A stretch of DNA of 64,000 nucleotides from GCF_988242995.1 NZ_OZ547043.1, one strand, 5' to 3'; counted from the stretch's first letter, positions 30,088-64,000 are shown. The notes: generated by a model not told the origin, from the letters alone. Numbers and translations are program-made.

Positions 30088-30138
30088 TATTTCAGTTCTC
30101 TGGTACTAAATGGGGCAAATTGGGGGCAAACTTTGCAA

Positions 30139-31374
30139 CTACGATAACCGCGCATTCAACATGGCTATCTGTTCGTCGTTCATGTCATCAATCCACATAC
30201 CGTAAATTTCATACACCATCTGCGCAGTTTCATGCCCCATTTGGCTGGCTATAAATGCCGGGTTCGCTCCTGCCGTCAACAGCCAGCAGGCAAAAGTATG
30301 CCGCGTATGGTACGGATTACGGCGGCGAATACCAGCACGTTTTACTGCTGCATTCCACCTTGCCCCCAAACTGCTTACCGAGTAATAAGGTTTTTGTTTT
30401 CCGTTACACACCCTGGGCATGAAAACAAAATGCAGTTTTTGCTTTTCGGTTCTGCCGTACTCCCGATGATAAAAGGTGATTTCGCTTTTGCGATGATGCC
30501 CGGTCAGTTTGTATTGCTCCTTCAGTGCTTCAAGAGCAGGCTGCAGTAGTGTTACTGTTCGGATCCCGGCATTTGTTTTTGGGGGACCGAACATATCAAG
30601 TATCGTCAGGTTTCTTCTGACATTCACTATTCCCTTTTCGAGATCCACATCCTCCCACGCCAGAGCTGCCAGTTCCCCGTGACGAAGTCCTGAGTAAACG
30701 GCAAATTTCCACAAGTTCTGGCTCTGTCCTTTTTCACTTTCCATTAATGCATTGAATTCTGTTTTAGATAACGGATCAGGCTTTATTCTGTTTCGCTGTA
30801 ATTTTTTTACTCCTTCAAATGGTTTGGTTGATATAAATCCCGACTGATACGCAAAACGCAACAGCGAACAGAGCAGGGCGATATAGTTATCAACTGTGCG
30901 CACGGTTCTTCCTTTTTTGTTGGATCTTGGATTATCCAGGTAAAGCGTTTCTCCATGCAGCAGTTCATTCCGGTAGTTTAAGATATCGCTATAACGAATA
31001 TGTGATATCGGGGTACTTTCACAAATTATTATTCTGAGTGTTTTTAATTGTGATTTCGTTTTCTTCATTGTGTTTGTTGTTAACTCTGTCTCTTTAATTT
31101 TTGTCCAGATATCACAAAGCTCTCCGAACGTTTTTATGACTCTCGTTGTCACCATTTTTGCCCCAGTGCTGGACTGGGGAAAACGTCTTAAATACTCAAA
31201 TTCACCGGAGTTTATTTCATGAACTATCAGCGCTCTTAAATTTCCGGCCTTTTTAATATTACTGTTTGTAATCTCCCAGCCTTTTAATGTTTCCCGACAT
31301 CGTTTTCCTCGAAACATGAACCAGATGCGAATGTATCTACCTCTAATCTCGACACCTGTTGGTAATTTAGACAT
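30139..31374 (-). CDS. intR: Prophage tyrosine integrase
   Basis: 411 aa with C-terminal HTRHTFA...Y catalytic region. Confidence 0.92.
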   Translation of the reverse strand: MSKLPTGVEIRGRYIRIWFMFRGKRCRETLKGWEITNSNIKKAGNLRALIVHEINSGEFEYLRRFPQSSTGAKMVTTRVIKTFGELCDIWTKIKETELTTNTMKKTKSQLKTLRIIICESTPISHIRYSDILNYRNELLHGETLYLDNPRSNKKGRTVRTVDNYIALLCSLLRFAYQSGFISTKPFEGVKKLQRNRIKPDPLSKTEFNALMESEKGQSQNLWKFAVYSGLRHGELAALAWEDVDLEKGIVNVRRNLTILDMFGPPKTNAGIRTVTLLQPALEALKEQYKLTGHHRKSEITFYHREYGRTEKQKLHFVFMPRVCNGKQKPYYSVSSLGARWNAAVKRAGIRRRNPYHTRHTFACWLLTAGANPAFIASQMGHETAQMVYEIYGMWIDDMNDEQIAMLNARLS

Positions 31375-31375
31375 A

Positions 31376-31591
31376 TCATGAGTCTTTGATAAACTGATTT
31401 ATCTTTGGATAGTTGTACCAGATAATCCCTCGTTTGCTGTCTGGCTTACCTAAAGGAGATACTCGTTTGAAGTGGAAGCCCTCCACCCAACAGTTCTGGC
31501 GGTATGCTTCAATTTGTCTGGCCCCCAGACCAGTGCGAAGCATCAGGCCGTATTCAACCATCCACTCTTCATTAAAGATTACTTGTGCCAT
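31376..31591 (-). CDS. xisR: Prophage excisionase-like protein (YdaQ/XisR)
   Basis: 71 aa from [21 protein letters not shown], directly upstream of int. Confidence 0.8.
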
Positions 31592-31669
31592 CGCATCACC
31601 TCTGGCAGGCGCCAATGTTAGACTGAAATTGACGCCCGATGTTGATTATTAATAATCAGCTATGAAGTT

Positions 31670-31879
31670 TTAATTTGAATACAATGCAATTCTCGAGGAC
31701 TGAAGTTTCTCGCAATTAAAATTTATCAGTTTTACTTTCTGCTCTCTGGAAACGCCTGCTTCTTTTTTACCTGAGAGCATTTTTTCGCATTCTGATTTCG
31801 TTAGTTTAGATTTTGAATATCTTGTCCAGTTAGTAGGAGTGCCACCTTCCTTTTCAATAGTGGCGGTAATTTTATACAT
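31670..31879 (-). CDS. ydaC: Rac prophage protein YdaC (DUF1187)
   Basis: about 69 aa from MYKITATIEKEGG; start chosen among alternative Mets, uncertain. Confidence 0.6.
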   Translation of the reverse strand: MYKITATIEKEGGTPTNWTRYSKSKLTKSECEKMLSGKKEAGVSREQKVKLINFNCEKLQSSRIALYSN

Positions 31880-32066
31880 GAACACCTCCATTATTATTTC
31901 CAGTGGTTCGTTTATTCCATCTTTCGAGTGCTTCTTTTTCACTTCCACCATAACCGGTTCGGGATTCGCATCCGTTACACTTCGCTCGGTAATATCCTGA
32001 AATGGCTTTCACCGTTACTGATGGACAACCACAAAATGGACATGGTTTAACATTGTCATATCTCAT
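31872..32066 (-). CDS. ralR: Restriction alleviation protein RalR (Lar), type I TA toxin
   Basis: 64 aa MRYDNVKPCPFCGCPSVTVKAISGYYRAKCNGCESRTGY with zinc-ribbon Cys pairs. Confidence 0.85.
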   Translation of the reverse strand: MRYDNVKPCPFCGCPSVTVKAISGYYRAKCNGCESRTGYGGSEKEALERWNKRTTGNNNGGVHV

Positions 32067-32122
32067 AACTTTTCTCATAAAAAATATTTCAAGTTGGCGG
32101 TGCATTACACCGCCAGGCTGAA

Positions 32123-32932
32123 TTATTCCTCTGAATTATCGATTACACTGTATTCCCCGGTTAATACAGAGGAATCTGCAGGATCGATTGTCAGTGGTTC
32201 CTTTTCATCCATTGATACTGCACGCTGGATCTCAATTGATACGGGCAGATATTTGAACAGGCGACGAATAGCCGTTTTCTTTGCCATTTCTTCCCAGTGA
32301 GTTACCCACGGCCCGTTATTACCAGCTTTACTCAGGCTGCGCACCAGCTCAATCTGTTTGCGCGTCATAACTTCAAACTGAGTACCTCCGTCTTTCAGTC
32401 TTGCGACAGCATAGACGTGGGTAACCGGGGCATCTTCGTTTTCTCCCGGGCGGTGTATTAACTTTTCATCAAGGCCAAATTCGAAGCTAAACTCGTCACC
32501 TTCACGGACAACACGGGCTGACAGGCTGGCGATTTGACCAGAACGGCGAGCCAGATCAATCATGCCGCGATAGCCAATGATTAGCTGAACGTTCTTTTTA
32601 CCGCTCTTTTCGTTTTTATTACCAAAAGGCAGTAAATATGCATGACCGAGGGCGCTACCTGGCTCAAGTCCGAGCTGTGAACACTGTACGATCGCACTGA
32701 CAAAACTCATAGTGTCACAGTTTCCTAACGCCGGAACTTTACGAATTTCTGTAGTGGCGATACGGATCATACGTTCAGCCGTCATATGGCGTGGAAGAGC
32801 TGCTGCCAGTTGCTCTTTCATTGATGGCTGGTTAATAAAGCTAATCACGTCGCTATTTTTAACTGCTGCTGGTGCACGGTTTCCCTGAGTTTTTTGCAGA
32901 TCGGCTTTTGCGATTGGTGGTTGCTTAGTCAT
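32123..32932 (-). CDS. recT: Recombinase RecT (single-strand annealing protein)
   Basis: 269 aa from [21 protein letters not shown]. Confidence 0.93.
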
Positions 32933-35525
32933 TTGCATATTCCTTAGCCCAGCGGGGCAGTGATAATGTCTTAATAGCTGGCCATTCATCGGTATTCAGG
33001 CAGTCAGACAGGGTTCGCAGATTGCGGTGATATTCCTGTTGACCTGCCAGTTTTGCTTCTTCGCCCATCATGAAAATTTCAACCGGATAACGTCCGCATT
33101 CAATAGTTGTGCTGGCAACCAGAAAAACGAAAGTTGGCTGCACTCCAAACTGTGCTTCATAACCGTCACTGTAGAATGCATCCTGAACGTGATAGCGGTA
33201 GTCGTAATAAGCGGTTTTGAATCGTTGAATATCCGCCGTAGTTTTCACGTCCATGATCCAGTGAAATTCAGGGATAATTTTGTCCGGACGGCACCGACAC
33301 AAAATTCCTGTTTCAGGATCTTCCCAGTAAATTGATGATTCAGCGTGTCCGGCGCTTTCAACAAGCCATTGCCCCAGCGGCAAAGCCATAACGCTTTGAT
33401 ACATGAGTTCAATTTTCCGGCCTTCTTCCGCAGTGATAACCGTTTTTCCTGTGCTTGCGCATTCCATCAGAAACGCTTTCTCTTCTTCTTTTCCGGCGTT
33501 TGTACGGCGGTTAAATTCAGGTGCTACGATAAAGCGGTTACTGAATTCTTCCGGTTCAAGTACCCGGCAGTGGAAAGCAGTTCCTAAATCGAGCGTTTTT
33601 GTCTTTGTGGTGTCCACGGGGGCATTTTTACGCCACAAATATAGTGCCGGAGTATCAGCAATGTCATCGAGCTGAGACTTACTGATACCGGGACCCGCGT
33701 GGTAATTCTCATTCGAAATTCCGTAATAAATACCTGGCTCTATGTCTTCTACGATTACGGGATCTGCGACTTCGCCAGTTTCATCACTGCAATCGTGATG
33801 CGGATCGCTGCCAGCATTCTCATTGTGCGGATGTTCAGCGCCTTCCATTTCCTCCGGATCATTTTCCTTAGCTTCAACCTGACTCTCTTCATCGAATGTT
33901 TCCTGGTATGTTGCGTCGCCCATCACCGCACCACAGTCAGGGCAGTTATCCCCGCCAGTCTGGCCGCAGGCATTGCAGGCTATTTCCGGTTCCTGTTGCA
34001 CTACTGGCTCAGGTTGATTCATATCTGGGCTGGTTTTTTCCGTTTCTGGCTGGTTCTGGTACACACAATCGCGAGTCTGGATCCCCTTTACCCATTTCGG
34101 ATCGTTCGGGTCGCTAATTCCGTCAACAAATTCACCACGTGATGCAGCAAGCAATTTATCGGCATCGACAGGATTTTTTGATGGAATGTTTTTCCGGGCT
34201 TCATGGAGTTCTGCCCACAGTTCCTGATATTTCGCATCAACAGAATTTACCTGTGACTGAGCATCCAGCGGCTGCGTGTCCTGATGATGTTCAGTTGCGT
34301 CCGGTTCCATTGTTTCAGCCTCTCCCTGTTCAACTGCCGTTGTTCCAGATGGTTGCGGTTTTTCTTCATCATCCTGTTTTCCTTCTTCTGTTACTCGCTG
34401 CGGCATCGGGGCAGAGGAGCGACCGCAGGCAATATCCACGATTTCCGGATCAGGGTTGGCATGATCGGTTTCAGTCAGTACTTTGTTCAGATATTCAGTG
34501 ACGTGCGCGGGGATGACCTCGATCCCAATTGGTGCTTCTTTTACGGACGCAACCACGATGGCGCGGGAATAATCCAGCCCGCCAGGCATGGTGATGAATT
34601 TGTCGCGGAAAACAGAAAAGGGCGGTTTATTTTCAGCGATAATTTCCTCAATGCGTTTAGCGTGTGCCGGATGAAGGTTATAGATGTCCAGATCCATTGA
34701 ACGGGCCAGTACGCCAGTGGCTACGTCGCGCGCCAGTGACGTCAGATCGTGTACGAAACCTTCGCCGCGATCGGTGAGGTTTCCGCCGCCAGCATTAGCA
34801 CCGGAAGCCGTGCGAGTGATGTGTGAAACACGATTACCCTTCATCCACTCTTTTGTCAGCAGTCCTCGATCGGTGTAGTCAGCGTTCAGGTATGCTTCGA
34901 AAAAAGCAGTTATCAGTCCCAGGTTTGAATTACCAGGATTAGGGAAAACTTTGTCAGTGTCACGAACCAGTTTGTGGAGTTCGCGAATTTCCAGCGGGTC
35001 GAGCAGGCTGGTTTTGTGGGAAACAGCCAGGGCAGTAACAGCCGGTAGTTCTTCAGCCCGAGCAATGTGTAATGCCTGGAGTCCGTCGCGTGAAACGTGC
35101 GTTACCGGTTTTTCGCTGCCGTGTTGAGCAAGCCAACGAATGGGCAGTTCCTGGCCAGAAATTGGGAGTAGCATATTCTCCTCAATCTCAGTCATGTCTT
35201 CGCCGTTGACGTTGGTATTGCCTTGATAGTGAGCGTTGTCTGGTGCTGCTCCCGGTTTTAGTTCCCATGTCATGGAGTCTTTGCTGAGTTGATAGCGTTC
35301 ACTCCAGGTAAAATCGATCTCACCTTCAGTGGGCAGGTCATTAACGACAGGAAAATTCGTGGCAACAGCTTTAAAATAGCTGCTCAGTTTTTTACCTGAC
35401 TTAACGATCAGGTAGTCCAGAGTGGCACAGGTCGATTCAAAATCGTTGCTTGCCCACAGGACGACGTCAGGTTCACCGGATGATTTTTTCGCTTTCCGTA
35501 ACAGGAAGAGTGGTTTTGTGCTCAT
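32925..35525 (-). CDS. recE: Exodeoxyribonuclease VIII RecE
   Basis: 866 aa full-length; overlaps recT start. Confidence 0.93.
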
Positions 35526-35624
35526 TGTTTTTTAACCTCAACTCAGATTAAAATTCGTTTTGTTCAGTGAATGATCTTGCCGGATACACACTGTTCATAG
35601 CCTGCGCCATACGCAGGCTATTTC

Positions 35625-36337
35625 TTGTGCACAGAAAACCCCCAGCTAGGCTGGGGGTTCCGGAAAGCTTTCAGCTTTGAGCCAGTTATTAAAACCCCTT
35701 TTGATTTGTTAAAACACTTTGCGGTCTGGCAACTGCAAGTGTCAAACAAGAAATCAAAAGGGGGTCCCAATGGGGAACGAAAAGAGCTTAGCGCACACCC
35801 GATGGAACTGTAAATATCACATAGTTTTTGCGCCAAAATACCGAAGACAGGTGTTCTACAGAGAGAAGCGTAGAGCAATAGGCAGTATTTTGAGAAAGCT
35901 GTGTGAGTGGAAAAGCGTACGGATTCTGGAAGCTGAATGCTGTGCAGATTATATCCATATGCTTGTGGAGATCCCGCCCAAAATGAGCGTATCCGGCTTT
36001 ATGGGATATCTGAAAGGGAAAAGCAGTCTGATGCTTTACGAGCAGTTTGGTGATTTGAAATTCAAATACAGGAACAGGGAGTTCTGGTGCAGAGGGTACT
36101 ACGTCGATACAGTGGGTAAGAACACGGCGAAGATACAGGATTACATAAAGCACCAGCTTGAAGAGGATAAAATGGGAGAGCAGTTATCGATTCCCTATCC
36201 GGGCAGCCCGTTTACGGGCCGTAAGTAACGAAGTTGGATGCAAATGTCAGATCGTGTGCGCCTGTTAGGGCGCGGCTGGTAAGAGAGCCTTATAGGCGCA
36301 TTTGAAAAACCTCCGGCTATGCCGGAGGATATTTATT
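35625..36337 (+). mobile_element. IS200-type insertion sequence, copy A
   Basis: About 711 bp near-identical to copy B; left-end hairpin CCCCCAGCTAGGCTGGGGG, right-end hairpin CCTCCGGCTATGCCGGAGG; contains tnpA. Confidence 0.9.
35770..36228 (+). CDS. tnpA: IS200/IS605 family Y1 (HUH) transposase TnpA
   Basis: 152 aa MGNEKSLAHTRWNCKYHIVFAPKYRRQVFY with HxH motif CADYIHMLVEIPP. Confidence 0.92.
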   Translation: MGNEKSLAHTRWNCKYHIVFAPKYRRQVFYREKRRAIGSILRKLCEWKSVRILEAECCADYIHMLVEIPPKMSVSGFMGYLKGKSSLMLYEQFGDLKFKYRNREFWCRGYYVDTVGKNTAKIQDYIKHQLEEDKMGEQLSIPYPGSPFTGRK

Positions 36338-36613
36338 TCAGATTTCACCTTTTAATTTCATTGCAATTAGAGTTGCCAGAAATTCGGCTTTTTTTTCTGC
36401 GGGCAGATTCTTTCCGATATGCACCAGGCACATTTTTTTGACACCTTCATCAAGTGTTTTTACGTTGCCTGATGGACCATCGATATCAACCACAGTGAAT
36501 GGGGTTTCTTTATTTTCTGTTTTAATTACGTAGCCAATGCGCTTTCCTTCCAGATTCACCTCGTGAACAATGTCATCGGTAGTTACAACAGTGGCTTCAT
36601 AATTGGTAATCAT
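36338..36613 (-). CDS. racC: Rac prophage protein RacC
   Basis: 91 aa from MITNYEATVVTTDDIVHEVNLEGKRIGYVI; stop codon abuts IS200 copy A. Confidence 0.85.
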   Translation of the reverse strand: MITNYEATVVTTDDIVHEVNLEGKRIGYVIKTENKETPFTVVDIDGPSGNVKTLDEGVKKMCLVHIGKNLPAEKKAEFLATLIAMKLKGEI

Positions 36614-36687
36614 GTTTTTCTCCTTAATTAAGGTTGAGCGAATACCTGCCATTTCTGGCATAAATTTAGTTTCGAATAGTCAATTAA

Positions 36688-36858
36688 TTAAAGTTCATGT
36701 GCCATCTGGTCTTTTTCGGCACAAGCTTCACTGCAATATTTTCTCGGTTCGTCTTTTGATAAAATCCCGTGCATGAAGTGAAGCATTCTTTCAATAGCTT
36801 TGCTTTCTTCAACGTCTTTTTTGCAAAGGTGGTAAGCACATTTTATTTTCTTAGTCAT
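36688..36858 (-). CDS. ydaE: Small Cys-rich metal-binding protein YdaE
   Basis: 56 aa ORF read by hand on minus strand ([18 protein letters not shown]...QMAHEL); not in ORF track. Confidence 0.7.
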   Translation of the reverse strand: MTKKIKCAYHLCKKDVEESKAIERMLHFMHGILSKDEPRKYCSEACAEKDQMAHEL

Positions 36859-37079
36859 CACCATGACTCCGCCTTTACAGGTAAACCATCACGACCGAGG
36901 AAGACTTTAATCATGCGGTCAGTAATGCATGTTTTTGTGGTCAGGTTACGAATATATAGTTTTCGCTTTTTAATATTGTTTGCCGAGGCAATATATGTCC
37001 GGCCTTCATGAAGAACATAATCGCCAGGAGTCACACACTGACGTGGTATTTCATCAGTTCCGAAGTGATGTGCAATCAT
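36858..37079 (-). CDS. kilR: FtsZ inhibitor KilR
   Basis: 73 aa from [26 protein letters not shown]. Confidence 0.88.
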
Positions 37080-37520
37080 AATTATCTCCATTTTTACAAA
37101 TGAACTTTGTTGATGCGGTGCCTGGTGCCTCCAGGTGACTGCAACCAGTTAACAATTACAGTCGGCTTTCCCACCCAAACCAATAAGGACTAACATGACT
37201 TTTAACTGTGCCACGTGCGCTTAGCCGCATTCACCGCATCACAAAATTCACTTTAAAAAGGGCGGACATCAGCCGAACTTCAAGAAAAAAACTGATGCCG
37301 CCAGGACTACACACAGCAATGTCGTTATTTACAACCGGAGGCGCACTCCCACCATTTAAATTTAACAGACAAGACCGACTCTTTATGGATATCGGAAATG
37401 CGCCTTCGTGTTGTGCCCGGTTTTATTTCACCACCTCCGGGCTTCGGTGGTCTCGGCTATACCCCTACAGCGAGAGCTTGTGTTAACATTTCAATACCCT
37501 TACAGTTGAGAGTTATTGAT

Positions 37521-38009
37521 ATGTTGGATGTATTTACTCCATTGTTGAAACTTTTTGCTAACGAGCCACTCGAAAGACTTATGTATACGATTATCATTTT
37601 TGGTCTCACTCTCTGGCTGATACCGAAAGAGTTTACTGCCGCATTCAATGCTTATACTGAAATACCTTGGCTCTTTCAGATTATCGTTTTTGCCTTTTCT
37701 TTCGTGGTCGCCATTTCCTTCTCAAGATTGCGAGCACATATTCAAAAGCATTATTCATTACTACCAGAGCAACGAGTATTGCTTCGTTTATCTGAGAAAG
37801 AAATCGCTGTATTTAAAGATTTCCTTAAAACAGGAAATCTTATTATCACTTCTCCTTGCCGTAACCCGGTTATGAAAAAATTAGAACGGAAGGGCATCAT
37901 TCAACATCAGAGTGATAGCGCAAACTGTTCTTATTATCTCGTCACCGAAAAATACTCCCATTTTATGAAGTTATTCTGGAACAGCAGGAGTAGACGTTTT
38001 AATCGTTAG
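37521..38009 (+). CDS. sieB: Superinfection exclusion protein SieB
   Basis: 162 aa from MLDVFTPLLKLFANEPLERLMYTIIIFGLT; membrane segments. Confidence 0.88.
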   Translation: MLDVFTPLLKLFANEPLERLMYTIIIFGLTLWLIPKEFTAAFNAYTEIPWLFQIIVFAFSFVVAISFSRLRAHIQKHYSLLPEQRVLLRLSEKEIAVFKDFLKTGNLIITSPCRNPVMKKLERKGIIQHQSDSANCSYYLVTEKYSHFMKLFWNSRSRRFNR

Positions 38010-38161
38010 CTTACTGTGTGCTTCTCCAACCATCGGCGCGCACCAGTTTCGGTTTTAAATGTTTTGCTTTTGGTATACGTCATGGCAGTGAACGTTCCAT
38101 CCTGGTTGGGGAACACGCCGCACACCAGGGATTCGTTGTTGCCGAGGTCGATTTTTTGCAT
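38006..38161 (-). CDS. ydaF: Rac prophage small protein YdaF
   Basis: 51 aa hand-translated MQKIDLGNNESLVCGVFPNQDGTFTAMTYTKSKTFKTETGARRWLEKHTVS. Confidence 0.75.
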   Translation of the reverse strand: MQKIDLGNNESLVCGVFPNQDGTFTAMTYTKSKTFKTETGARRWLEKHTVS

Positions 38162-38171
38162 TTTGCGAATC

Positions 38172-38306
38172 TCACATCTTGTTGCTACGTATAGCGACTT
38201 CTGCCTGCCAGAGATCCCAGTCGTTGCTGCGTAAAGCCTGCACAGCCTGGTTGTAAGTGATACCGCAACAATCCATCAAATACTGAACTACTTCGTAATG
38301 CACCAT
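38172..38306 (-). CDS. ydaG: Rac prophage small protein YdaG
   Basis: 44 aa hand-translated MVHYEVVQYLMDCCGITYNQAVQALRSNDWDLWQAEVAIRSNKM. Confidence 0.7.
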   Translation of the reverse strand: MVHYEVVQYLMDCCGITYNQAVQALRSNDWDLWQAEVAIRSNKM

Positions 38307-38614
38307 CTTATCTCTCCCCTTAACGCCGGGTGGCGGAACTAACTGCTGCACTGCAAAATTTGAATCCCGCCGTCATGTTCATACGCCTCGGGCTGGCTAC
38401 TTAACCCCTTACCACTGCCTGGTAACTCGAAGTATTGCCCGGCGTTCTGTGGGGCGGGGTGGGTGGTATGCTGGAACTATAGGTAATGCCTAATTGATTG
38501 TCAATAGGCTATGCCTAATGTTTTGAGCGTAACCTAATAGGTGATGGCGACAGCAGAAAGTGATGGGGGGGTTAAATAACGGAATCCAGGAGTTTTCCGT
38601 CAGACCATATAAGT

Positions 38615-39091: not shown

Positions 39092-39214
39092 TGCTTAATA
39101 TTCTCCTATGCGCATTACATTAGGCAATCCCTACCCTTACCGCATTAGGCACAGCCTATTGACAATTGCGTTAGGCGTCGCCTAATATTTCTGTGTGTTT
39201 TTGGAGTTCATTCG

Positions 39215-39511: not shown

Positions 39512-39533
39512 AACATCAAGAGGCAAATGATTC

Positions 39534-39956: not shown

Positions 39957-39968
39957 GCAAAAGTTTCC

Positions 39969-54513: not shown

Positions 54514-54700
54514 CGTTCTGGATGTTGATCTGAACCGACTGAAAGAAAATCGGGAAGCAATGACAGATTTTTATGCGGCCATCCGTAAGGGCAGAGCGAA
54601 AGGTGAAGCCGAGTTACGAGCGGCATTGTTTAAGCTTGCCAGAAAAGGGGATGCCTTTGCTCTGCGCGAACTACTCAGGGTGGATAAAAATCAGGACTAA
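54491..54700 (+). CDS. Small hypothetical protein upstream of terminase (start uncertain)
   Basis: ORF 54449..54700; internal Met MTAQQIADVLDV gives about 69 aa. Confidence 0.4.
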   Translation: MTAQQIADVLDVDLNRLKENREAMTDFYAAIRKGRAKGEAELRAALFKLARKGDAFALRELLRVDKNQD

Positions 54701-54703
54701 CTG

Positions 54704-55798
54704 ATGAGCAGACCGGACTGGGGGGCGTTGCAGCAGGAGTATATTGCTGAATACACCCGCTCCGGTATATCTCCGGTGGCATGGTGTGAAGCAAGGGGAC
54801 TGAATTACGCAACAGCCCGTCGTTACATCAAAAAAACTCCGAAAAATGCGCAGACAGAAATGTGCAAAACTGCGCAAAAAAGTGCGCAGAAAAAATCTGC
54901 GCAGACTGCACAAAAGCGGAACGAAAAATCTCAGGAAAAAAAGCCAGTATTCGATGCGGGCCTGAATGAGGGCGACGCGGAGGAATTTTCGTTCTGTCCC
55001 GATGAATTCGGCATTTCTGACCAGCAGGCTAAGTTTGCGATGCTTGTTGCTCAGGGTAAAAAGCCGACAGAGGCGTACCGACTAGCCGGTTATGAGGGGC
55101 AAGGTGCGACAGCTAACAGCAACGCCAGTCGTATGCTTAGAAATGCCAGGGTTTTTCGCGCTATCAGCTACTTCCGCAATCAGTACCAGAAACGCTATAC
55201 CGCAGACCTGGATTTACTAGTGAGTCAGTTGATGGCTATTGTCCTGGCCGACCCCAATCAGCTTGCACAATTTCGCCGTGTTAACTGCCGTTATTGCTGG
55301 GGCGAGAATCATCTCTACCAGTGGCGCGATATAGCAGAATTCGACAAGGCAGCGGCGCAGGCTTCCAGAGATGGCAAACCCGAACCGGAATATGGAGGCC
55401 TCGGCTTTGTTGATAACGCCATACCCAATCCGGACTGCCCGAAGTGCTGCGGTGAGGGAACGGGACAGCTTTATATGGCTGATACCACTCTGCTTGATGG
55501 GGATGCGCGGCAATTATATGCAGGGGCAAAATTCGGAAAATTCGGCGTTGAGATCCTGCTGGAGGATAAGGCTGCCGCCCGGCGTGAATTGTTGCGTTTG
55601 TTTTCTGCTGGCGGGGCTTTATGTGCAGATAAACGGCTACAGGAACTGGAAATTGAACGGCGCAGAATGGAAAACCAGAAGCTGCGCAAAGAGATCGAAA
55701 CGGTGGAAGATAATGAACATCCCCAGCCTGTGGCGATCAATATTAATGTGGTTGATGCCAGAGTAAGGAGTGATGAAGATGATCTCTCCGACGCTTAA
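54704..55798 (+). CDS. Terminase small subunit (candidate)
   Basis: 364 aa; N-terminal HTH-like SGISPVAWCEARGLNYATARRYIKK; directly upstream of large terminase. Confidence 0.55.
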   Translation: MSRPDWGALQQEYIAEYTRSGISPVAWCEARGLNYATARRYIKKTPKNAQTEMCKTAQKSAQKKSAQTAQKRNEKSQEKKPVFDAGLNEGDAEEFSFCPDEFGISDQQAKFAMLVAQGKKPTEAYRLAGYEGQGATANSNASRMLRNARVFRAISYFRNQYQKRYTADLDLLVSQLMAIVLADPNQLAQFRRVNCRYCWGENHLYQWRDIAEFDKAAAQASRDGKPEPEYGGLGFVDNAIPNPDCPKCCGEGTGQLYMADTTLLDGDARQLYAGAKFGKFGVEILLEDKAAARRELLRLFSAGGALCADKRLQELEIERRRMENQKLRKEIETVEDNEHPQPVAININVVDARVRSDEDDLSDA

Positions 55799-57080
55799 TG
55801 TGCCTCAGGCGCGATTTCTTTCAATGCCCCATAAATTTAAAGCCTATATTGCTGGTTTTGGCTCGGGCAAAACATGGGTTGGGTGTAGCGGCATATGCAA
55901 GGGGATTTGGGAGCATCCAGGTATAAATCAGGGATATTTTGCGCCAACGTATCCCCAAATTCGCGATATTTTTTACCCTACAGTGGAAGAAGTTGCTGCT
56001 GACTGGGGATTGAACGTAAAAATTAATGAGGGAAATAAAGAGGTTCACTTTTATTACGGACGCCAGTATCGGGGAACCACTATCTGCAGATCGATGGAGA
56101 AGCCACAAACGATCGTCGGTTTCAAAATTGGTAATGCGTTGGTGGATGAACTGGACATTTTGCCGAAGGAAAAAGCCAGAACGGCGTGGCGCAAGATAAT
56201 TGCACGTATGCGTTATAAGATTGATGGACTTCGCAACGGTATTGACGTTACAACCACGCCGGAAGGATTCAAATTTGTCTACGAGCAGTTTGTTAAAGCC
56301 GTGCGTGAAAAAACAGAGCTGGCCTCACTGTATGGTCTGGTGCAGGCATCTACTTTCGATAATGAAAAGAACCTGCCAGCAGATTACATTCCTTCGCTTC
56401 TTGAATCATACCCTCCAGAGCTGATTAAAGCCTATCTTCGAGGACAGTTTACTAACCTGACAAGTGGTACTGTTTACCATCAGTTTGACCGGAAACTGAA
56501 TAATTGCGAAGAAGTGGAGCAGCCAGGGGAGCCGATTTATATTGGGATGGATTTTAACGTTGGAAAGATGGCGGGAATCGTCCATGTGCTGCGTTTGGGG
56601 CTTCCATGTGCGGTAACTGAAATCATCAATGCCTACGATACGCCGGATATGATCCGCATCATTAAAGAACGCTTCTGGCTGTATGATGGGAATGATTACC
56701 GGAAAGTGAGGGAAATTTATATTTATCCAGATGCTTCCGGGGATTCCAGAAAATCAAGTAACGCAAGTACGACGGATATAGCCCAGCTTAAGCAGGCTGG
56801 TTTTAACGTTGTGGTGAACAGCTCGAACCCGCCAGTAAAAGATCGCGTTAACTCAATGAATGCAATGTTCTGCAATGCCAATGGTGAGCGTCGCTATAAA
56901 GTTAATGTGAAGCGTTGCCCGTTATATGCCGAATCTCTGGAGCAACAGGTCTGGGATGAGAAGGGGGAGCCTGATAAAAAATCTGGCAATGATCACCCGA
57001 ATGATGCCGGAGGTTATTTCATCGTTAAGCAATTCCCTATTGTCAAACCGACCGGAAGAGTCACATCACTTCGGATTTAA
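55770..57080 (+). CDS. Terminase large subunit
   Basis: 436 aa; Walker A AGFGSGKTW; C-terminal acidic nuclease-like region; start codon uncertain among M1/M2/M4. Confidence 0.75.
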   Translation: MMKMISPTLNVPQARFLSMPHKFKAYIAGFGSGKTWVGCSGICKGIWEHPGINQGYFAPTYPQIRDIFYPTVEEVAADWGLNVKINEGNKEVHFYYGRQYRGTTICRSMEKPQTIVGFKIGNALVDELDILPKEKARTAWRKIIARMRYKIDGLRNGIDVTTTPEGFKFVYEQFVKAVREKTELASLYGLVQASTFDNEKNLPADYIPSLLESYPPELIKAYLRGQFTNLTSGTVYHQFDRKLNNCEEVEQPGEPIYIGMDFNVGKMAGIVHVLRLGLPCAVTEIINAYDTPDMIRIIKERFWLYDGNDYRKVREIYIYPDASGDSRKSSNASTTDIAQLKQAGFNVVVNSSNPPVKDRVNSMNAMFCNANGERRYKVNVKRCPLYAESLEQQVWDEKGEPDKKSGNDHPNDAGGYFIVKQFPIVKPTGRVTSLRI

Positions 57081-57082
57081 TT

Positions 57083-58489
57083 ATGGCTGATATATCAACA
57101 CCCAACCTCGACTATAACGATATGCTGGAGGCGTGGGATATTAACGACGCACTGATGGGCGGTACGCTTGAAATGCGCAGGCAGGGGGAAAATTATCTCC
57201 CAAAATGGCCTAACGAAGATGAAGACGCTTATAAAAAACGCCTGTCTGTGGCTACGCTACTTCCTGTGTATGAAGAAAGCATCAAGCAAAATATTGGGCG
57301 CATATTTGCAGAGCCGACAGTATTGAGTGAGGAAACGCCGGCAAAAATCAGGGAATATGCAGAAAATATCGACATGGAGGGGAGCCGACTGGATGTGTGG
57401 GCGCAGCAATTTTTCAGCCTCGCATTTCAGTATGGTGTGGCACATGCGCTGGTGGACTATCCACGAACGGATATGAAAGAGATTCGGACAAAAGCCGATG
57501 AAAACGCGACCGGTGGTCGTCCGTACGTTACGATGCTGAATCCACGCCAGGTTATTGGATGGAAATCGAAAGTTGAAAAAGGGAAAGTTGTTCTCACTGA
57601 TTTGCGTATAAAAGAGGTCATCATTATTGATGGTGATGATTTCGGGCAGAAGAAGGTGGAGCAGATCCGCCATATTATGCCCCGTCGAGTTGAAATTTAT
57701 CGACGTAGCGAAGGCACTAATGGCGAATCTGTCTGGACGCTTCATGAGTCATGGAATACCAGCCGTGATGATATTCCTCTGGTAACACTGTACACGAAGA
57801 AAACAGGATTTATGCGTGGTACACCGCCATTGCTTAATCTTGGCTTGCTGAATATCAAGCACTGGCAAAGCCAGAGCGAGCAGGACAATATTCTTCATGT
57901 TGCCCGCGTTCCATTGCTGGTGGCCTACGGGCTGGACAGGAATGAAGAACTGACGGTTGGTGCATCCACCGCTACGATTTTTGAGGACAGAACAAAAAAT
58001 GGCCTCGAATATGTTGAACATAGTGGCGCAGCGATAGAATCTGGCGAAACATCACTTGAGAAGCTGGAAAATCAGATGCGTCATGCCGGCGCTAAACTTC
58101 TGCGTGCTGAAAATACATCCACCAAATCTGTTGATCAGACTAATGAAGAGCGAATGCAGGAAAACTCGCCGCTTTATACAATGGCGAACTCCCTCGAAGA
58201 TGCTCTCGATAATATTCTCCAGATAATGGCGGAATGGATCGGAGAGAGTTGCGGTGGCAATGTGGATGTGCGCACTGAACTGGATGTATCTGCCCAGGTG
58301 TTTGACTCATCCTCCGCGCTGGCTGTTCAGTCATTGCGTCAGGGCGGTGATATACGTCAGATTGATGCGGTTCGGGTGTTGCAGGCGTTGAAATTTATCG
58401 ATCAGGATTCCCGTCCAGAGGAAGTGATCGATGAATTAAAAAATCAGAGTGTAATGCTGATGGAAATCAATGATGCAAACCGTGAATGA
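57083..58489 (+). CDS. Portal protein
   Basis: 468 aa following terminase; size and position. Confidence 0.7.
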   Translation: MADISTPNLDYNDMLEAWDINDALMGGTLEMRRQGENYLPKWPNEDEDAYKKRLSVATLLPVYEESIKQNIGRIFAEPTVLSEETPAKIREYAENIDMEGSRLDVWAQQFFSLAFQYGVAHALVDYPRTDMKEIRTKADENATGGRPYVTMLNPRQVIGWKSKVEKGKVVLTDLRIKEVIIIDGDDFGQKKVEQIRHIMPRRVEIYRRSEGTNGESVWTLHESWNTSRDDIPLVTLYTKKTGFMRGTPPLLNLGLLNIKHWQSQSEQDNILHVARVPLLVAYGLDRNEELTVGASTATIFEDRTKNGLEYVEHSGAAIESGETSLEKLENQMRHAGAKLLRAENTSTKSVDQTNEERMQENSPLYTMANSLEDALDNILQIMAEWIGESCGGNVDVRTELDVSAQVFDSSSALAVQSLRQGGDIRQIDAVRVLQALKFIDQDSRPEEVIDELKNQSVMLMEINDANRE

Positions 58490-59585
58490 ACGGCTGCGTG
58501 ATGAATCAATTGCTCATGCAGTCTGGATATCCCGCTATAGCACTGGCGTGGCTGCCAGAATGGTGAAAATACTGAATGACAGCGATGCGGAACTTACTGC
58601 TCGCCTGCTGATAGCACTGGACAGCCTCGATCCAGGTAATTTTACCGTTAAGCGCCTGGAGTCACTTCTGGCGAGCGTCAGAGAGGTTAACCGCACTGCT
58701 ATTAACAGCATGTTTACCAGTCTCTCCGGAGAGCTGAACGAGCTGGCAATTTATGAGGCTGGTTATCAGTTAAGTCTGTTTGATTCTATGCTACCTGATT
58801 TTGTTGCTGATGTTCACCCTCTGGTTGGTATCTCTCCTGATGCACTTTATGCCGCTGCAATGGCGCGACCATTCCAGGGACGACTGCTCAGTGAGTGGGC
58901 CTCAGATCTTGAGGCGGATCGGCTCAGACGCATAACAAATACAGTGCGTCAGGGTTTTTTGCTGGGGGATACCAATGAGCAGATCGCAAGAAAAATTCGG
59001 GGACATGTCAGTAAGGGATTTCAGGATGGTGCATTGCAGATGAGCCGGGCTAATGCGGCCAGCATTGCAAAAACAGCGGTTGGACATCTTGCTGCTACTG
59101 CCCGTGAGAGTTTTGCCAGCGCGAATAATGATTTGATTAAGGGTAAGCAATGGTTATCAACGCTTGATAATCGTACTACGCCACAATGTCGAATCAGGGA
59201 TCGCCTCAAATATACGCTGAATAATAAACCTGTAGGTCACAGCGTGCCTTATTTGCAGGGGCCGGGAAAAATTCATTTCTGCTGCCGCTCAACGGAAACG
59301 TTCATTCTGAAATCAGCGAAGGAACTGGGTATTGATGTTCGCGATATTTCCCCGGCTGAGCGGGCCAGCATGGATGGCGTGGTGGCCGGAGATACAACCT
59401 ACAGGGAATGGTTTTTGCGTCAGCCTTACACCAGACAAAAACAGATTGTGGGGGAAACCCGAGCAAAGCTGATTCGGGATGGTGGTATGTCGCCAGATGA
59501 ATTTTACACCGATAAAGGCGAATGGCTGACGCTGAAGCAGCTCCGTGAGCGTGATGCACAGGTATTCAGAAAAGCAGGGATTTAA
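58470..59585 (+). CDS. Head morphogenesis / minor head protein (Mu F-like, candidate)
   Basis: 371 aa immediately after portal, overlapping its 3' end. Confidence 0.55.
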   Translation: MMQTVNERLRDESIAHAVWISRYSTGVAARMVKILNDSDAELTARLLIALDSLDPGNFTVKRLESLLASVREVNRTAINSMFTSLSGELNELAIYEAGYQLSLFDSMLPDFVADVHPLVGISPDALYAAAMARPFQGRLLSEWASDLEADRLRRITNTVRQGFLLGDTNEQIARKIRGHVSKGFQDGALQMSRANAASIAKTAVGHLAATARESFASANNDLIKGKQWLSTLDNRTTPQCRIRDRLKYTLNNKPVGHSVPYLQGPGKIHFCCRSTETFILKSAKELGIDVRDISPAERASMDGVVAGDTTYREWFLRQPYTRQKQIVGETRAKLIRDGGMSPDEFYTDKGEWLTLKQLRERDAQVFRKAGI

Positions 59586-59604
59586 ATAAATCATTTATTA
59601 CAAC

Positions 59605-59629
59605 AGGCTACCTTCGGGTGGCCTTTTTT
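59605..59629 (+). terminator. Rho-independent terminator after head morphogenesis gene
   Basis: AGGCTACC-TTCG-GGTGGCCT followed by TTTTTT. Confidence 0.6.
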
Positions 59630-59689
59630 ATTGCTGCGATCCGGATGGTGAGCAGCGTAACTGTCGGAAGACTTAAACCAGGTACTAAT

Positions 59690-60454
59690 ATGAAACTGAA
59701 AACGGTCGAGATTAACGGAAAACAATACGCAGAAATTGATACTGCTGGCCTGCCAGTTTATGTGCACGACGATGGTAAAGAAATTGGCTTCGATGCACCG
59801 CTGGCGACAAAAAAAATTACAGAGCTTAATGGCGAGGCAAAAAATCATCGCCTGGCTAAAGAAGCTGCAGAGGAAAAACTGGCTAAGTTTGCCGCTATCG
59901 AAGACCCGAAGAAGGCGATCGAGGCACTGGAAATGCTGTCAAAAATCGACCAGAAAAAGCTGCTCGATGCGGGACAGGTTGACCAGGTTAAGGCAGAAAT
60001 TACGAAAAATTTTCAGCAGCAATTAGATGAAGAAAAGCAACGCTCTCAGATGCTGGAGAAGCAGCTTTACGATTCTATGATTGGCGGTAGTTTTGCGGGT
60101 TCAAAATATATTGCCGATAAAATTGCGATCCCGGCAGATTTATTACAAGCCCGCTTCGGGCAGGCATTCAAAGTGGAAGAAGGGAGGATCGTTGCTTATG
60201 ACGCTTCCGGCAACAAAATTTATTCCCGCGCGAAGCCTGGCGAACTGGCGCAGTTTGATGAGGCGCTGGAGTTCCTTGTCGAAAATTACCCTCAGAAAGA
60301 CTACATCCTGAAAGCCAGTGGCAACAATGGCGGCGGCTCCCGTCCGACACAGCATGATATTGGTCAGAAAACGATGAAACGCTCTGCTTTTGATGCACTG
60401 GATGTTGCAGGTAAGCAAAACGCATTGAAAGACGGTATCACAATCGTTGATTAA
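59690..60454 (+). CDS. Scaffolding protein (candidate)
   Basis: about 254 aa from MKLKTVEINGKQYAEID; charged coiled-coil-like middle; precedes capsid gene. Confidence 0.5.
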   Translation: MKLKTVEINGKQYAEIDTAGLPVYVHDDGKEIGFDAPLATKKITELNGEAKNHRLAKEAAEEKLAKFAAIEDPKKAIEALEMLSKIDQKKLLDAGQVDQVKAEITKNFQQQLDEEKQRSQMLEKQLYDSMIGGSFAGSKYIADKIAIPADLLQARFGQAFKVEEGRIVAYDASGNKIYSRAKPGELAQFDEALEFLVENYPQKDYILKASGNNGGGSRPTQHDIGQKTMKRSAFDALDVAGKQNALKDGITIVD

Positions 60455-60552
60455 CACATTTGTCAGCTTCCGGATGGGAGCTGGTGTCAGGGCTGGATAG
60501 CTCATTACTCCATCTATTCACAATTACGCAAATTTTTAAGGAATATTTAATT

Positions 60553-61692
60553 ATGGCTGGAAATACCCTGACCGGGTTGATCCCGACTATTTATACCGCC
60601 CTGGATGTTGTATCCCGTGAGCAGGTAGGTTTTATCCCTGCGGTAGCAAAAAACGCAAAAGCTGACGCCGCAGCAAAAGATCAGACGGTAACCGCGCCAG
60701 TTGCGCCTGAGGCGAAAACCGAAGATATCGTACCGGGGCCGTCAGCTCCGAATACCGGTGATCAAAATATTGGCACTGTTGATGTAAAAATTACTAAATC
60801 CAAAATGGCACCGGTTAAATGGAATGGTGAAGAACAACTGGCTCTTGGCCCTTCAGGGACTTACAACACCATTCTGGCTGATCAGTTCAAGCAGGCTTTT
60901 CGCGCCCTTGCAAACGAGGTTGAGGCTGATCTTGGTGCGTTGTATTTCGGTGCTTCCCGCGCCGTGGGAACCGCAGGGACAACGCCGTTTGGTGTTAAAG
61001 ATGATCTTTCTGATGCTGCTCTGGCTCGTCAGGTTCTGGAGGATAACGGCGCACCGACAACCGATCTGCAGATGGTGCTTGGCTCCACTGCCATTGCTAA
61101 TTTGCGCGGAAAACAGTCTGTATTGTTTAAAGTGAATGAATCCGGCACTGAACAGCTACTGCGTGAGGGCGTGTTGGGGCGTCTGGAGGGATTCAATATT
61201 CACAGTTCGGCAGGTGTGAAACGAGCGCCAAAGGTTGCTGCAACTGGTTATCTCGTGAATGGAGAGAAAAAAGAAGGCGATGTTCTTATTTCCATTGATA
61301 CTGGTTCGGGGAGTATTTCTGCAGGTCAGATTGTTACGTTCGCTGGTGATCCGAATCAGTATGTTGTGGCAGCAGCGACCAGCAATCTGATTACTCTTGC
61401 AGCGCCCGGACTGCGTCAGGATCTGGCCGATGATACTGCCATCACAGTTGTTGGGGCCTTTACTGCAAATATGGCGTTTGATCGCAACGCGTTTCTGCTG
61501 GCATCCCGTACTCCGGCAATGCCGGAAGGTGGCGATAATGCTGATGATGTAATGAATGTTACGGACCCGATTTCAGGGATTACGTTCCAGATTGCACTGT
61601 ATCGTCAGTATCGCCAGGTGCGCTATGAAGTTGGACTGGCATGGGGTGTTTCATCAGTGAAGCCGGCACATGGTTGTCTGATTCTTGGTTAA
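60553..61692 (+). CDS. Major capsid protein (candidate)
   Basis: about 379 aa from MAGNTLTGLIPTIYTALDVVSRE; followed by strong terminator. Confidence 0.6.
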   Translation: MAGNTLTGLIPTIYTALDVVSREQVGFIPAVAKNAKADAAAKDQTVTAPVAPEAKTEDIVPGPSAPNTGDQNIGTVDVKITKSKMAPVKWNGEEQLALGPSGTYNTILADQFKQAFRALANEVEADLGALYFGASRAVGTAGTTPFGVKDDLSDAALARQVLEDNGAPTTDLQMVLGSTAIANLRGKQSVLFKVNESGTEQLLREGVLGRLEGFNIHSSAGVKRAPKVAATGYLVNGEKKEGDVLISIDTGSGSISAGQIVTFAGDPNQYVVAAATSNLITLAAPGLRQDLADDTAITVVGAFTANMAFDRNAFLLASRTPAMPEGGDNADDVMNVTDPISGITFQIALYRQYRQVRYEVGLAWGVSSVKPAHGCLILG

Positions 61693-61701
61693 ACATTCAA
61701 A

Positions 61702-61722
61702 CGGGGCTTCGGCCCCATTTTT
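61702..61722 (+). terminator. Rho-independent terminator after capsid gene
   Basis: GGGGC-TTCG-GCCCC followed by ATTTTT. Confidence 0.55.
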
Positions 61723-61734
61723 AATGGAGGGCAT

Positions 61735-61911
61735 ATGGCCGGATTAACTAAAGAGCAAAGAGCACAGCGTGAAGCCGCACAAAAAACGCAAATTGAGTTA
61801 GTGGTTATGGTGACCGATTATCAGATGTTTCCCGGCGCACCAACTATCGCTAATGTTCATCCTGATGAAGTTGACAACTGGAAGGCTATGGGCTGGAAAA
61901 CTCAGGAGTAA
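61735..61911 (+). CDS. Small phage protein (58 aa), function unknown
   Basis: GGAGG RBS then ATG; MAGLTKEQRAQREAAQKTQIELVVMVTDYQMFPGAPTIANVHPDEVDNWKAMGWKTQE. Confidence 0.5.
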   Translation: MAGLTKEQRAQREAAQKTQIELVVMVTDYQMFPGAPTIANVHPDEVDNWKAMGWKTQE

Positions 61912-61914
61912 CAC

Positions 61915-62310
61915 ATGATCACTTACGTGACCTGTGATGACGTTGATAATGCGTTTGGGAACGCCTGGACGAGTGAGAACGCTAAAAATAAAGCTGTTTT
62001 AATGGCTAATGCCTGGCTTAATGGCTTCAACCTGAAAATTAACCCATCCCGTATTCCGGAAGAGGTAAAACTTGCGGGAGCATATGCAGCCAGAATTGCC
62101 TCATTCGGTAAGTTGTTTCAGCAGAAAAATGATTCTGGCGTTGTTATCAGTAAAGCCGTGTCGGCTGACGGGGTCAGTGTATCGAAATCATTTGCTGAGT
62201 TGCCAGCAAACAGCACTGTATTGCTTGAACCCGATTTACAGCTTGCGATAGCACTGCTGAAACCGTACGGACTTAGTCGCTCACAAGTCAGGGTTGTGAG
62301 GGGGGGATAA
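61915..62310 (+). CDS. Head-tail connector / head completion protein (candidate)
   Basis: 131 aa; first of four tightly coupled small genes between capsid and tail genes. Confidence 0.45.
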   Translation: MITYVTCDDVDNAFGNAWTSENAKNKAVLMANAWLNGFNLKINPSRIPEEVKLAGAYAARIASFGKLFQQKNDSGVVISKAVSADGVSVSKSFAELPANSTVLLEPDLQLAIALLKPYGLSRSQVRVVRGG

Positions 62311-62693
62311 TGGGGCTTCGTGAAGAGATTCAGTCAGAGGTTGCCGCTGCTTTTGATGAGGATTTAGCGGACGCCGTGAGTGATTTTTCTGGTTCTTACG
62401 TTACGCACCGGCACTGGGATCCTGTGACGGAAACTGGCGGCGAATCCACCGCAATCTATACCGGGCGAGGCGTGTTGACACGTTATAAGCTGGGCAGAAT
62501 TGATGGGATTAATATTTTGCATGGTGACCTTAAATTAACCGCTCTGGTATGCGAGGTTACGGATAAACCCGCTGTCGACCATATTATTGAGATTTATGAT
62601 CCTGTATTAAGGCAGTTACAACGATACGAGGTAATTACAGCGAGTGTAGATCCTTCCGCATCAGTTTACTCTATCCAGTTAAGGAGAGCGTAA
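62310..62693 (+). CDS. Head-tail joining protein (candidate)
   Basis: 127 aa; start overlaps previous stop. Confidence 0.45.
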   Translation: MGLREEIQSEVAAAFDEDLADAVSDFSGSYVTHRHWDPVTETGGESTAIYTGRGVLTRYKLGRIDGINILHGDLKLTALVCEVTDKPAVDHIIEIYDPVLRQLQRYEVITASVDPSASVYSIQLRRA

Positions 62694-63074
62694 ATGGCAA
62701 AGGCATGGGATATAGAACCGTCAATATTTGCCGGGATGATTGAGGAAGATGTGGGGCTGAAAATTCGCTACATCGCTATGCAGATTCTTACTGCTATTGA
62801 TATTGCTGCTCCGGTTGATACCGGACGTTTCAGAAATAACAACCTGGTGTCGTTACAGCATCCCGATTTTGGTATATCTGATAACGTGGATCCGAACGGT
62901 ACGATTGCGGTTCAGCGTGGGATCGGGGTTATTTCGAAAGCTGCAAATTACGGAGTTATTTATATCCAGAATAACCTTCCTTATGCAGAGGCTCTTGAAA
63001 ACGGTCATTCACAACAAGCGCCAACTGGCGTGTATGCCAACGCTTTTCATGGTGTTTTACAGGCTTACAAATGA
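62694..63074 (+). CDS. Head-tail adaptor / tail completion protein (candidate)
   Basis: 126 aa; coupled. Confidence 0.45.
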   Translation: MAKAWDIEPSIFAGMIEEDVGLKIRYIAMQILTAIDIAAPVDTGRFRNNNLVSLQHPDFGISDNVDPNGTIAVQRGIGVISKAANYGVIYIQNNLPYAEALENGHSQQAPTGVYANAFHGVLQAYK

Positions 63075-63463
63075 CGTTTACTGAAATCAGAAATACGGTT
63101 ATTTCCAGAATGACGGCACAGACGATTATTGATGGAAAAGACGTATTGTATCCGAACGCGCCAACGTTCGATCCTTCCGGTAAGTTAATCTGGGCGCGGT
63201 TAAGTAATATTCCCGGGCAGGCTGGAGTTAATGAAATTGGCGCGGGGCCGATTGTTTATCGCACGGGGATAATCATTATTCAGTTATTTGTCCCCGCAGG
63301 TTCTGGTTCAAAACTCATTACTGAGACAGCCGATAAATTGCGGGAACTGTTTGAGTTTCAGGATGACGATCGTCTCAGTTACCAGGCTGTTTCCTCAATA
63401 GCCGTTGGCGAAAAGAATGGCTGGTTCCAGCTTAATCTTCAAATTCCATATCGCGCGCTCTAG
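63071..63463 (+). CDS. Tail terminator / neck protein (candidate)
   Basis: 130 aa; overlaps previous stop by 4 nt. Confidence 0.45.
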   Translation: MTFTEIRNTVISRMTAQTIIDGKDVLYPNAPTFDPSGKLIWARLSNIPGQAGVNEIGAGPIVYRTGIIIIQLFVPAGSGSKLITETADKLRELFEFQDDDRLSYQAVSSIAVGEKNGWFQLNLQIPYRAL

Positions 63464-63489
63464 CGCAATTAATGACATAGGAGGCTCCT

Positions 63490-64000
63490 GTGAGTTCAGG
63501 TGCAAAGGTTATCTCGGCATTTATCCGGGAGACGGTTGCAGGCACTACGCCAGCAAGTGGTGACTGGAGTTTATTAAAACGCACAAGCTGGGGAGTAAAA
63601 CCCACCCAGAATAAAGGCGAAAATAATGAGATTGGTGGCTCCCGGATGGCTCAGGGGGCGACGCCTGGCACTGTGGATGTCGGCGGTGATGTTGGTACCA
63701 AATTTCGCTGGGGTCAACATGATGATTTTCTTGCATCCTGTTTCGGCGCGGAATGGTCAGGCGATTCTCTGACAATGGGGAATGAGCGAATAACATTTTC
63801 TCTGGCGACCTATGCGTCCGATGTCGGAATTGCCTCTGTCGTCAGAGGAGCGCAGGTTGGCTCATGGAAAATGCAGATCCCTAACGACGGCGATATTACA
63901 GCGACCGTAACCTTTGCCGGACTGGACTGGGAATCAAAGGCCGATGATACGAATTTTATCAAAGGCGAACCTGTGGATAGTGCAGGAAAGCTACGTTATT
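63490..64000 (+). CDS. Major tail protein (candidate), 3' end beyond window
   Basis: GTG start after GGAGG; open frame to window end (VSSGAKVISAFIRETVAGTTPASGDW...). Confidence 0.45.
   Translation, partial: MSSGAKVISAFIRETVAGTTPASGDWSLLKRTSWGVKPTQNKGENNEIGGSRMAQGATPGTVDVGGDVGTKFRWGQHDDFLASCFGAEWSGDSLTMGNERITFSLATYASDVGIASVVRGAQVGSWKMQIPNDGDITATVTFAGLDWESKADDTNFIKGEPVDSAGKLRY

Follow-up and report, generated by a model that had tools for sequence, protein, structure and literature searches.

We found that the prophage in a 64,000-nt stretch of an Escherichia coli chromosome (NZ_OZ547043.1, assembly GCF_988242995.1; the whole stretch is hereafter called the window) is very probably an undeleted lambdoid temperate prophage of the Rac type, integrated by IntR and XisR at a 26-bp core within the 5' end of ttcA, and that Rac of E. 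coli K-12 derives from this kind of prophage through three internal deletions. The prophage begins inside the window, within ttcA, and continues past its right end. The visible part spans 34 kb, up to residue 170 of the tail tube protein, while the right part (~20 kb in relatives) and the right attachment site (attR) lie beyond the window. The main reference was strain LST200A (NZ_CP110858), a near-identical annotated relative, and the second was K-12 MG1655 (NC_000913.3, Rac at 1411899-1434958). Window 16000-64000 is colinear with LST200A at 98.8-99.9% identity and is gap-free, save for two extra 711-bp segments. The initial annotation had started the prophage at position 30088. Its left boundary is instead the attachment core TTGTTCAGGTTGTATTGTTCTTTCTT, about 50 bp further left. 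This 26-bp core is repeated at attR of K-12 (in ttcC) and at attR of LST200A, and the base equivalent to the core of the left attachment site (attL) in the window is the start of the K-12 Rac annotation.

K-12 MG1655 matches only window positions 26139-35626, 36323-42051 and 50620-53050, at 99.0-99.9% identity, and is without 42052-50619 and without everything from 53051 to past the window end. Alignment of the two prophages resolves the breakpoints to the base level. With LST200A as reference, the first K-12 deletion removes 7,857 bp from ydaW to Rz (starting at window position 42052, inside ydaW), the second 11,560 bp from ynaK to ydaY (starting at 53051) and the third 9,869 bp from the tape measure gene to lom, a figure that includes an IS110 insertion sequence (IS) of LST200A. 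K-12 Rac has thereby lost the stretch from the C-terminus of YdaW to the N-terminus of Rz, including the methylase/nuclease pair, hok, nin-like genes, Q, holin and endolysin, and, from 53051, the C-terminus of the ParB-like protein, the glycosyltransferase, terminase, head, connector and tail tube genes. It retains the sequences on both sides of these losses, namely the N-terminus of YdaW, the C-terminus of Rz with Rz1, trkG, the N-terminus of YnaK, ydaY and the N-terminus of the tape measure protein. Of the 5,426 complete E. coli genomes in which junctions and carriers were counted, only 336 and 348 have the deletion junctions of the K-12 type. The K-12 deletions are thus lineage-specific, occurring in about 340 of the 5,426. 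What remains in K-12 agrees closely with the window: both share the attL core in ttcA, the order int-xis-rcbA-ralR/RalA-recT-recE-racC-ydaE-kilR-sieB-racR-ydaSTUV, and identical TrkG and Rz1 proteins, and the early region intR-xisR-ralR/RalA-recT-recE-racC-kilR-sieB-racR-ydaSTUV is colinear at 99.0-99.3% identity over 15.2 kb. Their IS content differs, with an IS5 in lomR of K-12 Rac and two IS200 copies in the present strain.

We mapped 46 coding sequences (CDSs) of LST200A, from ttcA through the tail terminator gene, onto the window. All 46 are full length: they have the LST200A length, a start and a stop codon, no internal stop and 0-9 amino acid (aa) differences, and the gene order is also the same. 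The two IS200 copies are the only indels in the visible part. The genes for integration, immunity, replication, lysis, packaging and head formation are complete and uninterrupted, and both blocks missing from K-12 are present, in agreement with the initial annotation, which had described the prophage as keeping genes that the K-12 remnant has lost. Functions were assigned with Pfam, PHROG, PADLOC and Rfam profiles and, for the endolysin, with the lambda lysozyme 1AM7.

Several genes truncated or absent in K-12 had been listed in the initial annotation, and their integrity is confirmed here. YdaW has 253 aa, as against 186 aa in K-12, where only the first 151 aa align to the window protein. The ParB-like YnaK homologue has 263 aa, as against 87 aa in K-12, which retains its first 86 aa. 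The lysis cassette, kept in K-12 only from position 50620 on, is full, comprising a holin with the MKM start (identified as a holin solely through its Pfam family), a lambda-R-like endolysin, and Rz with the embedded Rz1. All but a handful of endolysin residues are identical to those of lambda R (1AM7). The cassette thus resembles lambda S-R-Rz/Rz1 in its S-family dual-start holin, R-like endolysin and Rz1 inside Rz. It differs from lambda in having a 189-aa gene and an IS200 copy between the Q-like gene and the holin gene, and in having trkG directly 3' of Rz/Rz1. The position of trkG as a cargo gene between the lysis and packaging modules is likewise borne out, as it lies 3' of Rz/Rz1 and 5' of the ParB-like gene and has a guanine-cytosine (GC) content of 38%, whereas the window has 45.5% within the prophage and 49.6% in the host DNA. 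The terminase-to-tail series had been called complete. This stands for the genes from the small terminase subunit (TerS) through the tail terminator, which are intact and give full-length PHROG matches throughout 54704-63463; it does not stand for the tail module itself, which lies outside the window except for the truncated tail tube gene. The nearest isolated phages by major capsid identity are Klebsiella phage 5 LV-2017 (83% aa) and HK639 (75% aa). The features are collected in Table 1.

Table 1. Features of the Rac-type prophage and its left boundary, with positions counted from the first nucleotide of the window
Feature	Position	Strand	Remarks
ttcA	29152-30087	minus	prophage follows
attL core TTGTTCAGGTTGTATTGTTCTTTCTT	30038-30063		within ttcA 5' end; identical to K-12 attL
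intR, integrase	30139-31374	minus	LST200A length, 0 aa differences; colinear with K-12
xisR, excisionase	31376-31591	minus	LST200A length, 0 aa differences; colinear with K-12
rcbA, ralR, recT, recE	31670-35525	minus	all intact
RalA small RNA	31695-31873	plus	Rfam RF02694, 225 bits
IS200 copy 1, 711 bp	35627-36337	plus	between recE start and racC stop codon; tnpA ~35771-36229
racC, ydaE, kilR (minus), sieB (plus), ydaF, ydaG (minus)	36338-38306		intact, LST200A lengths
racR (minus), ydaS, ydaT, ydaU, ydaV	38615-41579		all intact; families via Pfam and PHROGs
YdaW homologue	41602-42363	plus	DUF1627; full length
DUF977 / Ren-like protein	after ydaW, block 41602-42810	plus	profile match, intact
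C5 DNA methyltransferase	42844-43884	minus	Pfam/PADLOC matches
ABC-ATPase/OLD-like nuclease, 609 aa	43908-45737	minus	best PADLOC matches HEC-04, ATPase-Toprim
hok/gef-family toxin open reading frame (ORF)	45883-46038	plus	51 aa, GTG start; annotated in LST200A
DUF1367 protein, YbcO-like nuclease	within 46504-47932	plus	intact, profile matches
Q-like antiterminator	47390-47932	plus	DUF1133 and Phage_antitermQ match
Hairpin and T-tract 3' of Q-like gene	48016-48040	plus	-16.1 kcal/mol, z = -3.6; also in LST200A empty site
IS200 copy 2, 711 bp	48041-48751	plus	108 bp 3' of Q-like gene, directly after hairpin and T-tract
189-aa protein	48865-49434	plus	match to phrog_11870 (function unknown); between Q-like gene and holin
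Holin, lambda S family	49782-50123	plus	PF05106, E=8e-28; ATG-AAA-ATG (MKM) dual-start motif
Endolysin, 158 aa	50127-50603	plus	1AM7 over residues 3-158, E=7.5e-102
Rz	50600-51064	plus	PF03245
Rz1	50820-51005	plus	PF06085; embedded in Rz, other frame
trkG, cargo gene	51202-52659	plus	485/485 aa identical to K-12 TrkG
YnaK homologue	52797-53588	plus	ParB_N domain; full length
TAGT/GREB1-like (TET-associated) glycosyltransferase	53581-54513	plus	PF20691; phrog_842, annotated 'beta-glucosyl-HMC-alpha-glucosyltransferase'
69-aa ORF	end of block 52797-54700	plus	
TerS, large terminase subunit (TerL), portal (DUF4055), MuF-like head protein, scaffold, P22-family major capsid	54704-61692	plus	full-length PHROG matches; intact versus LST200A
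58-aa ORF, adaptor Ad1, head closure Hc1, tail completion, tail terminator, partial tail tube	61735-64000	plus	
Tail tube, first 170 aa	63490-64000	plus	identical to LST200A; cut by window end

The two extra 711-bp segments are IS200 copies, because they encode a Y1 transposase (Y1_Tnp, PF01797, E=7e-37) and match the Rfam family of the IS200 antisense RNA region, STnc490 (RF01405, found twice at 144.6 bits each; in copy 1 at 35637-35760). Like the IS200 elements of the Salmonella/E. coli type (IS200/IS605 family), they have a single Y1 transposase gene, a terminator hairpin at the left end, the STnc490/art200 region and no target duplication, and they are 711 bp long, whereas the length given for Salmonella is 707 bp. 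The two copies, 12,414 bp apart and equally oriented, are 100% identical and both lie outside coding sequences, so that no CDS is broken. In comparison with the empty sites of LST200A, each insertion amounts to 711 bp, with boundaries ambiguous by 2 nt. Copy 1 is found neither in LST200A nor in K-12, and neither IS200 junction occurs in any of the 5,426 complete E. coli genomes. The two insertions are the only strain-specific feature of the prophage.

By homology, RacR would act as a repressor opposing YdaS, which is Cro-like and matches P22 Cro, and YdaT, which is CII-like. RacR itself (38615-39091, minus strand) gave no Pfam or PHROG match, and no recognisable helix-turn-helix or S24 self-cleaving peptidase profile. 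The leftward early operon would comprise kilR-racC-recET-ralR-xis-int, and the rightward operon the putative replication genes for YdaU (primosomal/O-like) and YdaV (DnaC/IstB-like), ending at the Q-like antiterminator. Late transcription dependent on Q would pass a terminator, for which the hairpin at 48016-48040, by analogy with tR', is the candidate. It would then enter the holin, endolysin and Rz/Rz1 genes and the trkG cargo, and continue through the ParB/glycosyltransferase pair, terminase, portal, scaffold, P22-fold capsid, connector and lambda-like tail genes. In this layout, both IS200 copies have their left end right behind the T-tract of a GC-rich, terminator-like hairpin (35597-35626 and 48016-48040) that is also present in the empty sites of LST200A.

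The left end of IS200 is a bidirectional rho-independent terminator, and transposition of the element is very rare (Ellis et al., PMC4513863). Read on the minus strand, the sense strand of kilR-racC-recE...xis-int, copy 1 has a right-end hairpin followed by UUUUUC and a left-end hairpin followed by UUUUCUGU, with -15.5 and -20.7 kcal/mol, respectively. Since the native hairpin at this site faces the plus strand, terminators in the sense direction of the minus-strand genes are newly introduced by copy 1. This copy may therefore exert polarity on recET-ralR-xis-int, unless these genes are transcribed from promoters of their own. Copy 2 is different in that its own hairpins have weaker U-tracts on the plus strand and are preceded by the native terminator-like hairpin, which late transcription must already override. 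If the Q-like protein acts like lambda Q, copy 2 is probably tolerated.

The placement of both copies next to a hairpin is not peculiar to this prophage. Four more E. coli IS200 sites (loci L004-L007) show the same pattern, but they had been picked through flank similarity and form a biased sample, which was hence replaced by an unbiased scan for the exact pattern of the left end. The scan gave 15 loci from genera other than Escherichia, including Citrobacter, Kluyvera, Kosakonia and Raoultella. A hairpin and T-tract directly precede IS200 in all 13 of the loci with a readable flank, and 12 of these flanks are distinct. Target choice after terminator T-tracts thus explains the positions of the IS200 copies without selection for prophage silencing. 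We found no statement of such a target rule in the literature searched, and this strict positioning of IS200 behind terminator T-tracts may be under-described. A truncated IS200 left end (~108 nt) also follows a homologous hairpin between the Q gene and the holin gene of another lambdoid prophage (NZ_CP169309, strain MFDS1019527; L004, 3501-3633). The Q-to-lysis terminator appears to be a recurrent landing site of IS200.

The initial annotation had called the prophage largely intact and possibly inducible, and the sequence does not establish the first statement and neither supports nor refutes the second. Judged by its coding sequences, the visible 34 kb offers no argument against function. 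The transcription units are not free of foreign insertions, as IS200 copies with terminator hairpins lie in the early-left operon and after the Q-like gene. We give even chances to the reading that the prophage, although gene-complete in the window, is functionally impaired and in early decay: the terminators of copy 1 would cut recET-ralR-xis-int off from the early-left promoter, and a lesion in the tail region may add to this. The minus-strand hairpins of copy 1 with their U-runs, the bidirectional terminator documented for IS200, the novelty of the sense-direction terminators at this site, and the frequent disruption of structural genes by IS elements in close relatives all point in this direction. 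However, no coding lesion is seen, and recET is dispensable for lambdoid growth. Moreover, antitermination in Rac may allow read-through, and copy 2 is preceded by a native terminator which late transcription has to override in any case.

Full function is a less than even but real prospect. The prophage would then excise, replicate, lyse its host and release infectious siphovirus particles, as KingRac does, and the IS200 copies would be harmless, with the Q-modified polymerase reading through copy 2 and with xis and int using their own promoters. No gene is broken in the visible 34 kb, attL is intact, and the head module is of a type that is viable in phage HK639. KingRac, a Rac-like prophage of 46,834 bp at ttcA, is weakly inducible by mitomycin, forms tailed particles, lysogenises K-12 and, in the mouse gut, takes the place of K-12 Rac (Frazao et al. 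2019, PMC6731689). Its packaging and its transduction of the adjacent fnr region have also been shown (2026 preprint, bioRxiv 10.64898/2026.05.27.728231). An RpoS-dependent induction of xisR has also been reported in K-12 (PMC4632033). On the other hand, the tail genes and attR are beyond the window, two operon-borne IS200 copies carry the published bidirectional terminator (PMC4513863), and KingRac is likened to the present element by description rather than by sequence.

Some of these points also weigh against the reading of the whole element as a complete Rac-type prophage. With ~20 kb and attR lying outside the window, its completeness is not established. The late promoter, tR', the Q activity and the structure of the early-left operon are taken from the lambda analogy and the K-12 literature. 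In addition, near-identical relatives often have IS elements (IS110, IS3, IS5 and IS1203) in structural genes, which makes decay of the unseen part plausible. For example, the portal gene of CH459 is annotated twice beside an IS3 transposase gene, and in LST200A an IS110 separates tail genes L and K. The LST200A prophage totals ~54 kb, of which the right ~20 kb contain ydaY, the tape measure gene, M, L, K, I, J, lom, fibre genes, sitABCD and attR.

A further proposal concerns the history of the IS200 copies, and we hold it only tentatively, as rather unlikely. The copies could be recent terminator-homing insertions, of which copy 1 would uncouple recET-ralR-xis-int from the early-left promoter as a first 'grounding' step, and the direct repeats, 12.4 kb apart, would predispose to loss of the kil-immunity-replication-Q segment. 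A strain with a Rac phage that is gene-complete in the window and with two IS200 copies in its operons could be used as a natural experiment on IS200 polarity and prophage grounding.

We also compared the window with other carriers. Taking at least 80% of a query in one place as the criterion, the right query (window 40000-64000) is found in 168 complete genomes and the left query (window 29000-53000) in 36. The prophages of strains LST200A and EFF60 and the entries vB_EcoS-683R6 and vB_EcoS-666R9 are full-length Rac-type prophages with 98.4-99.9% nucleotide identity to the window. None of them has IS200 at either site, and several have other IS elements. The vB_EcoS-* entries, which are deposited in GenBank as phages, were rejected as isolated viruses with the same late region, as they are PHASTER-predicted prophages from clinical isolates. 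Rac-SA53 was likewise rejected as a phage with the same late region, having only 18% of window 39001-64000 in common. That share, the unequal counts of the two queries and the general mosaicism of lambdoid prophages would suit a recombinant in which a Rac early region was joined to an unrelated late region and which would be uninformative on the ancestor of K-12 Rac, but we reject this as highly improbable, since the two flanks of each deletion are preserved in K-12 with unchanged order and 99-99.9% identity. As a separate observation, a record labelled Salmonella phage SPF_0923 (ON032529.1) is 99.8% identical to window 50863-64000, that is, from within Rz, which implies either spread of this late module across genera or an issue with the host label.

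The undeleted Rac-type prophage is of an already known kind: it is the long form of Rac, which is common, annotated and published. Rac-like prophages at ttcA, namely Sp10 and CP-933R of O157, have been described and stated to be able to infect other strains; only their leftmost 8 kb are 99% identical to K-12 Rac (PMC4632033). Like KingRac, they are similar to the element in the window in their ttcA site and full phage size. A survey of Rac gene content across 154 genomes found trkG and recE to be the best conserved genes and discussed trkG as Rac cargo (PMC5700373). Inducible Rac-like phages (PMC6731689), trkG as Rac cargo (PMC5700373) and Rac-like prophages at ttcA (PMC4632033) are thus all previously documented, and, with the first two on record, the element opens no new question. 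It provides a clean reference for the losses of K-12 Rac, with three deletions and end points at the base level, although the practical value is small.

The window has an accessory block (42844-46038) that is not found in K-12. The GC content over 44001-46000 is 35%. The methyltransferase and nuclease genes (42844-45737) resemble a restriction- or defence-type pair and lie with the replication genes on one side and the Q-like gene on the other. Near the hok/gef-family ORF, no Sok-type RNA was found at the Rfam gathering threshold. The 189-aa protein encoded 3' of IS200 copy 2 has no Pfam match. Its gene is followed by a terminator-like hairpin (49660-49677) and thus looks like cargo of the late region.

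Just 5' of the terminase genes, the 3' end of ynaK and the start of the glycosyltransferase gene overlap by 8 bp. The ParB-like protein and the glycosyltransferase may form a DNA-modification module. There is no TET/JBP gene among the genes examined, and no pair of ParB and TET-associated glycosyltransferase genes in phages was found in the literature searched. In LST200A, the sitABCD iron/manganese transporter genes (L003, 7104-10553) are located between a fragment of a tail-fibre-assembly gene and attR, and form a second cargo locus besides trkG.

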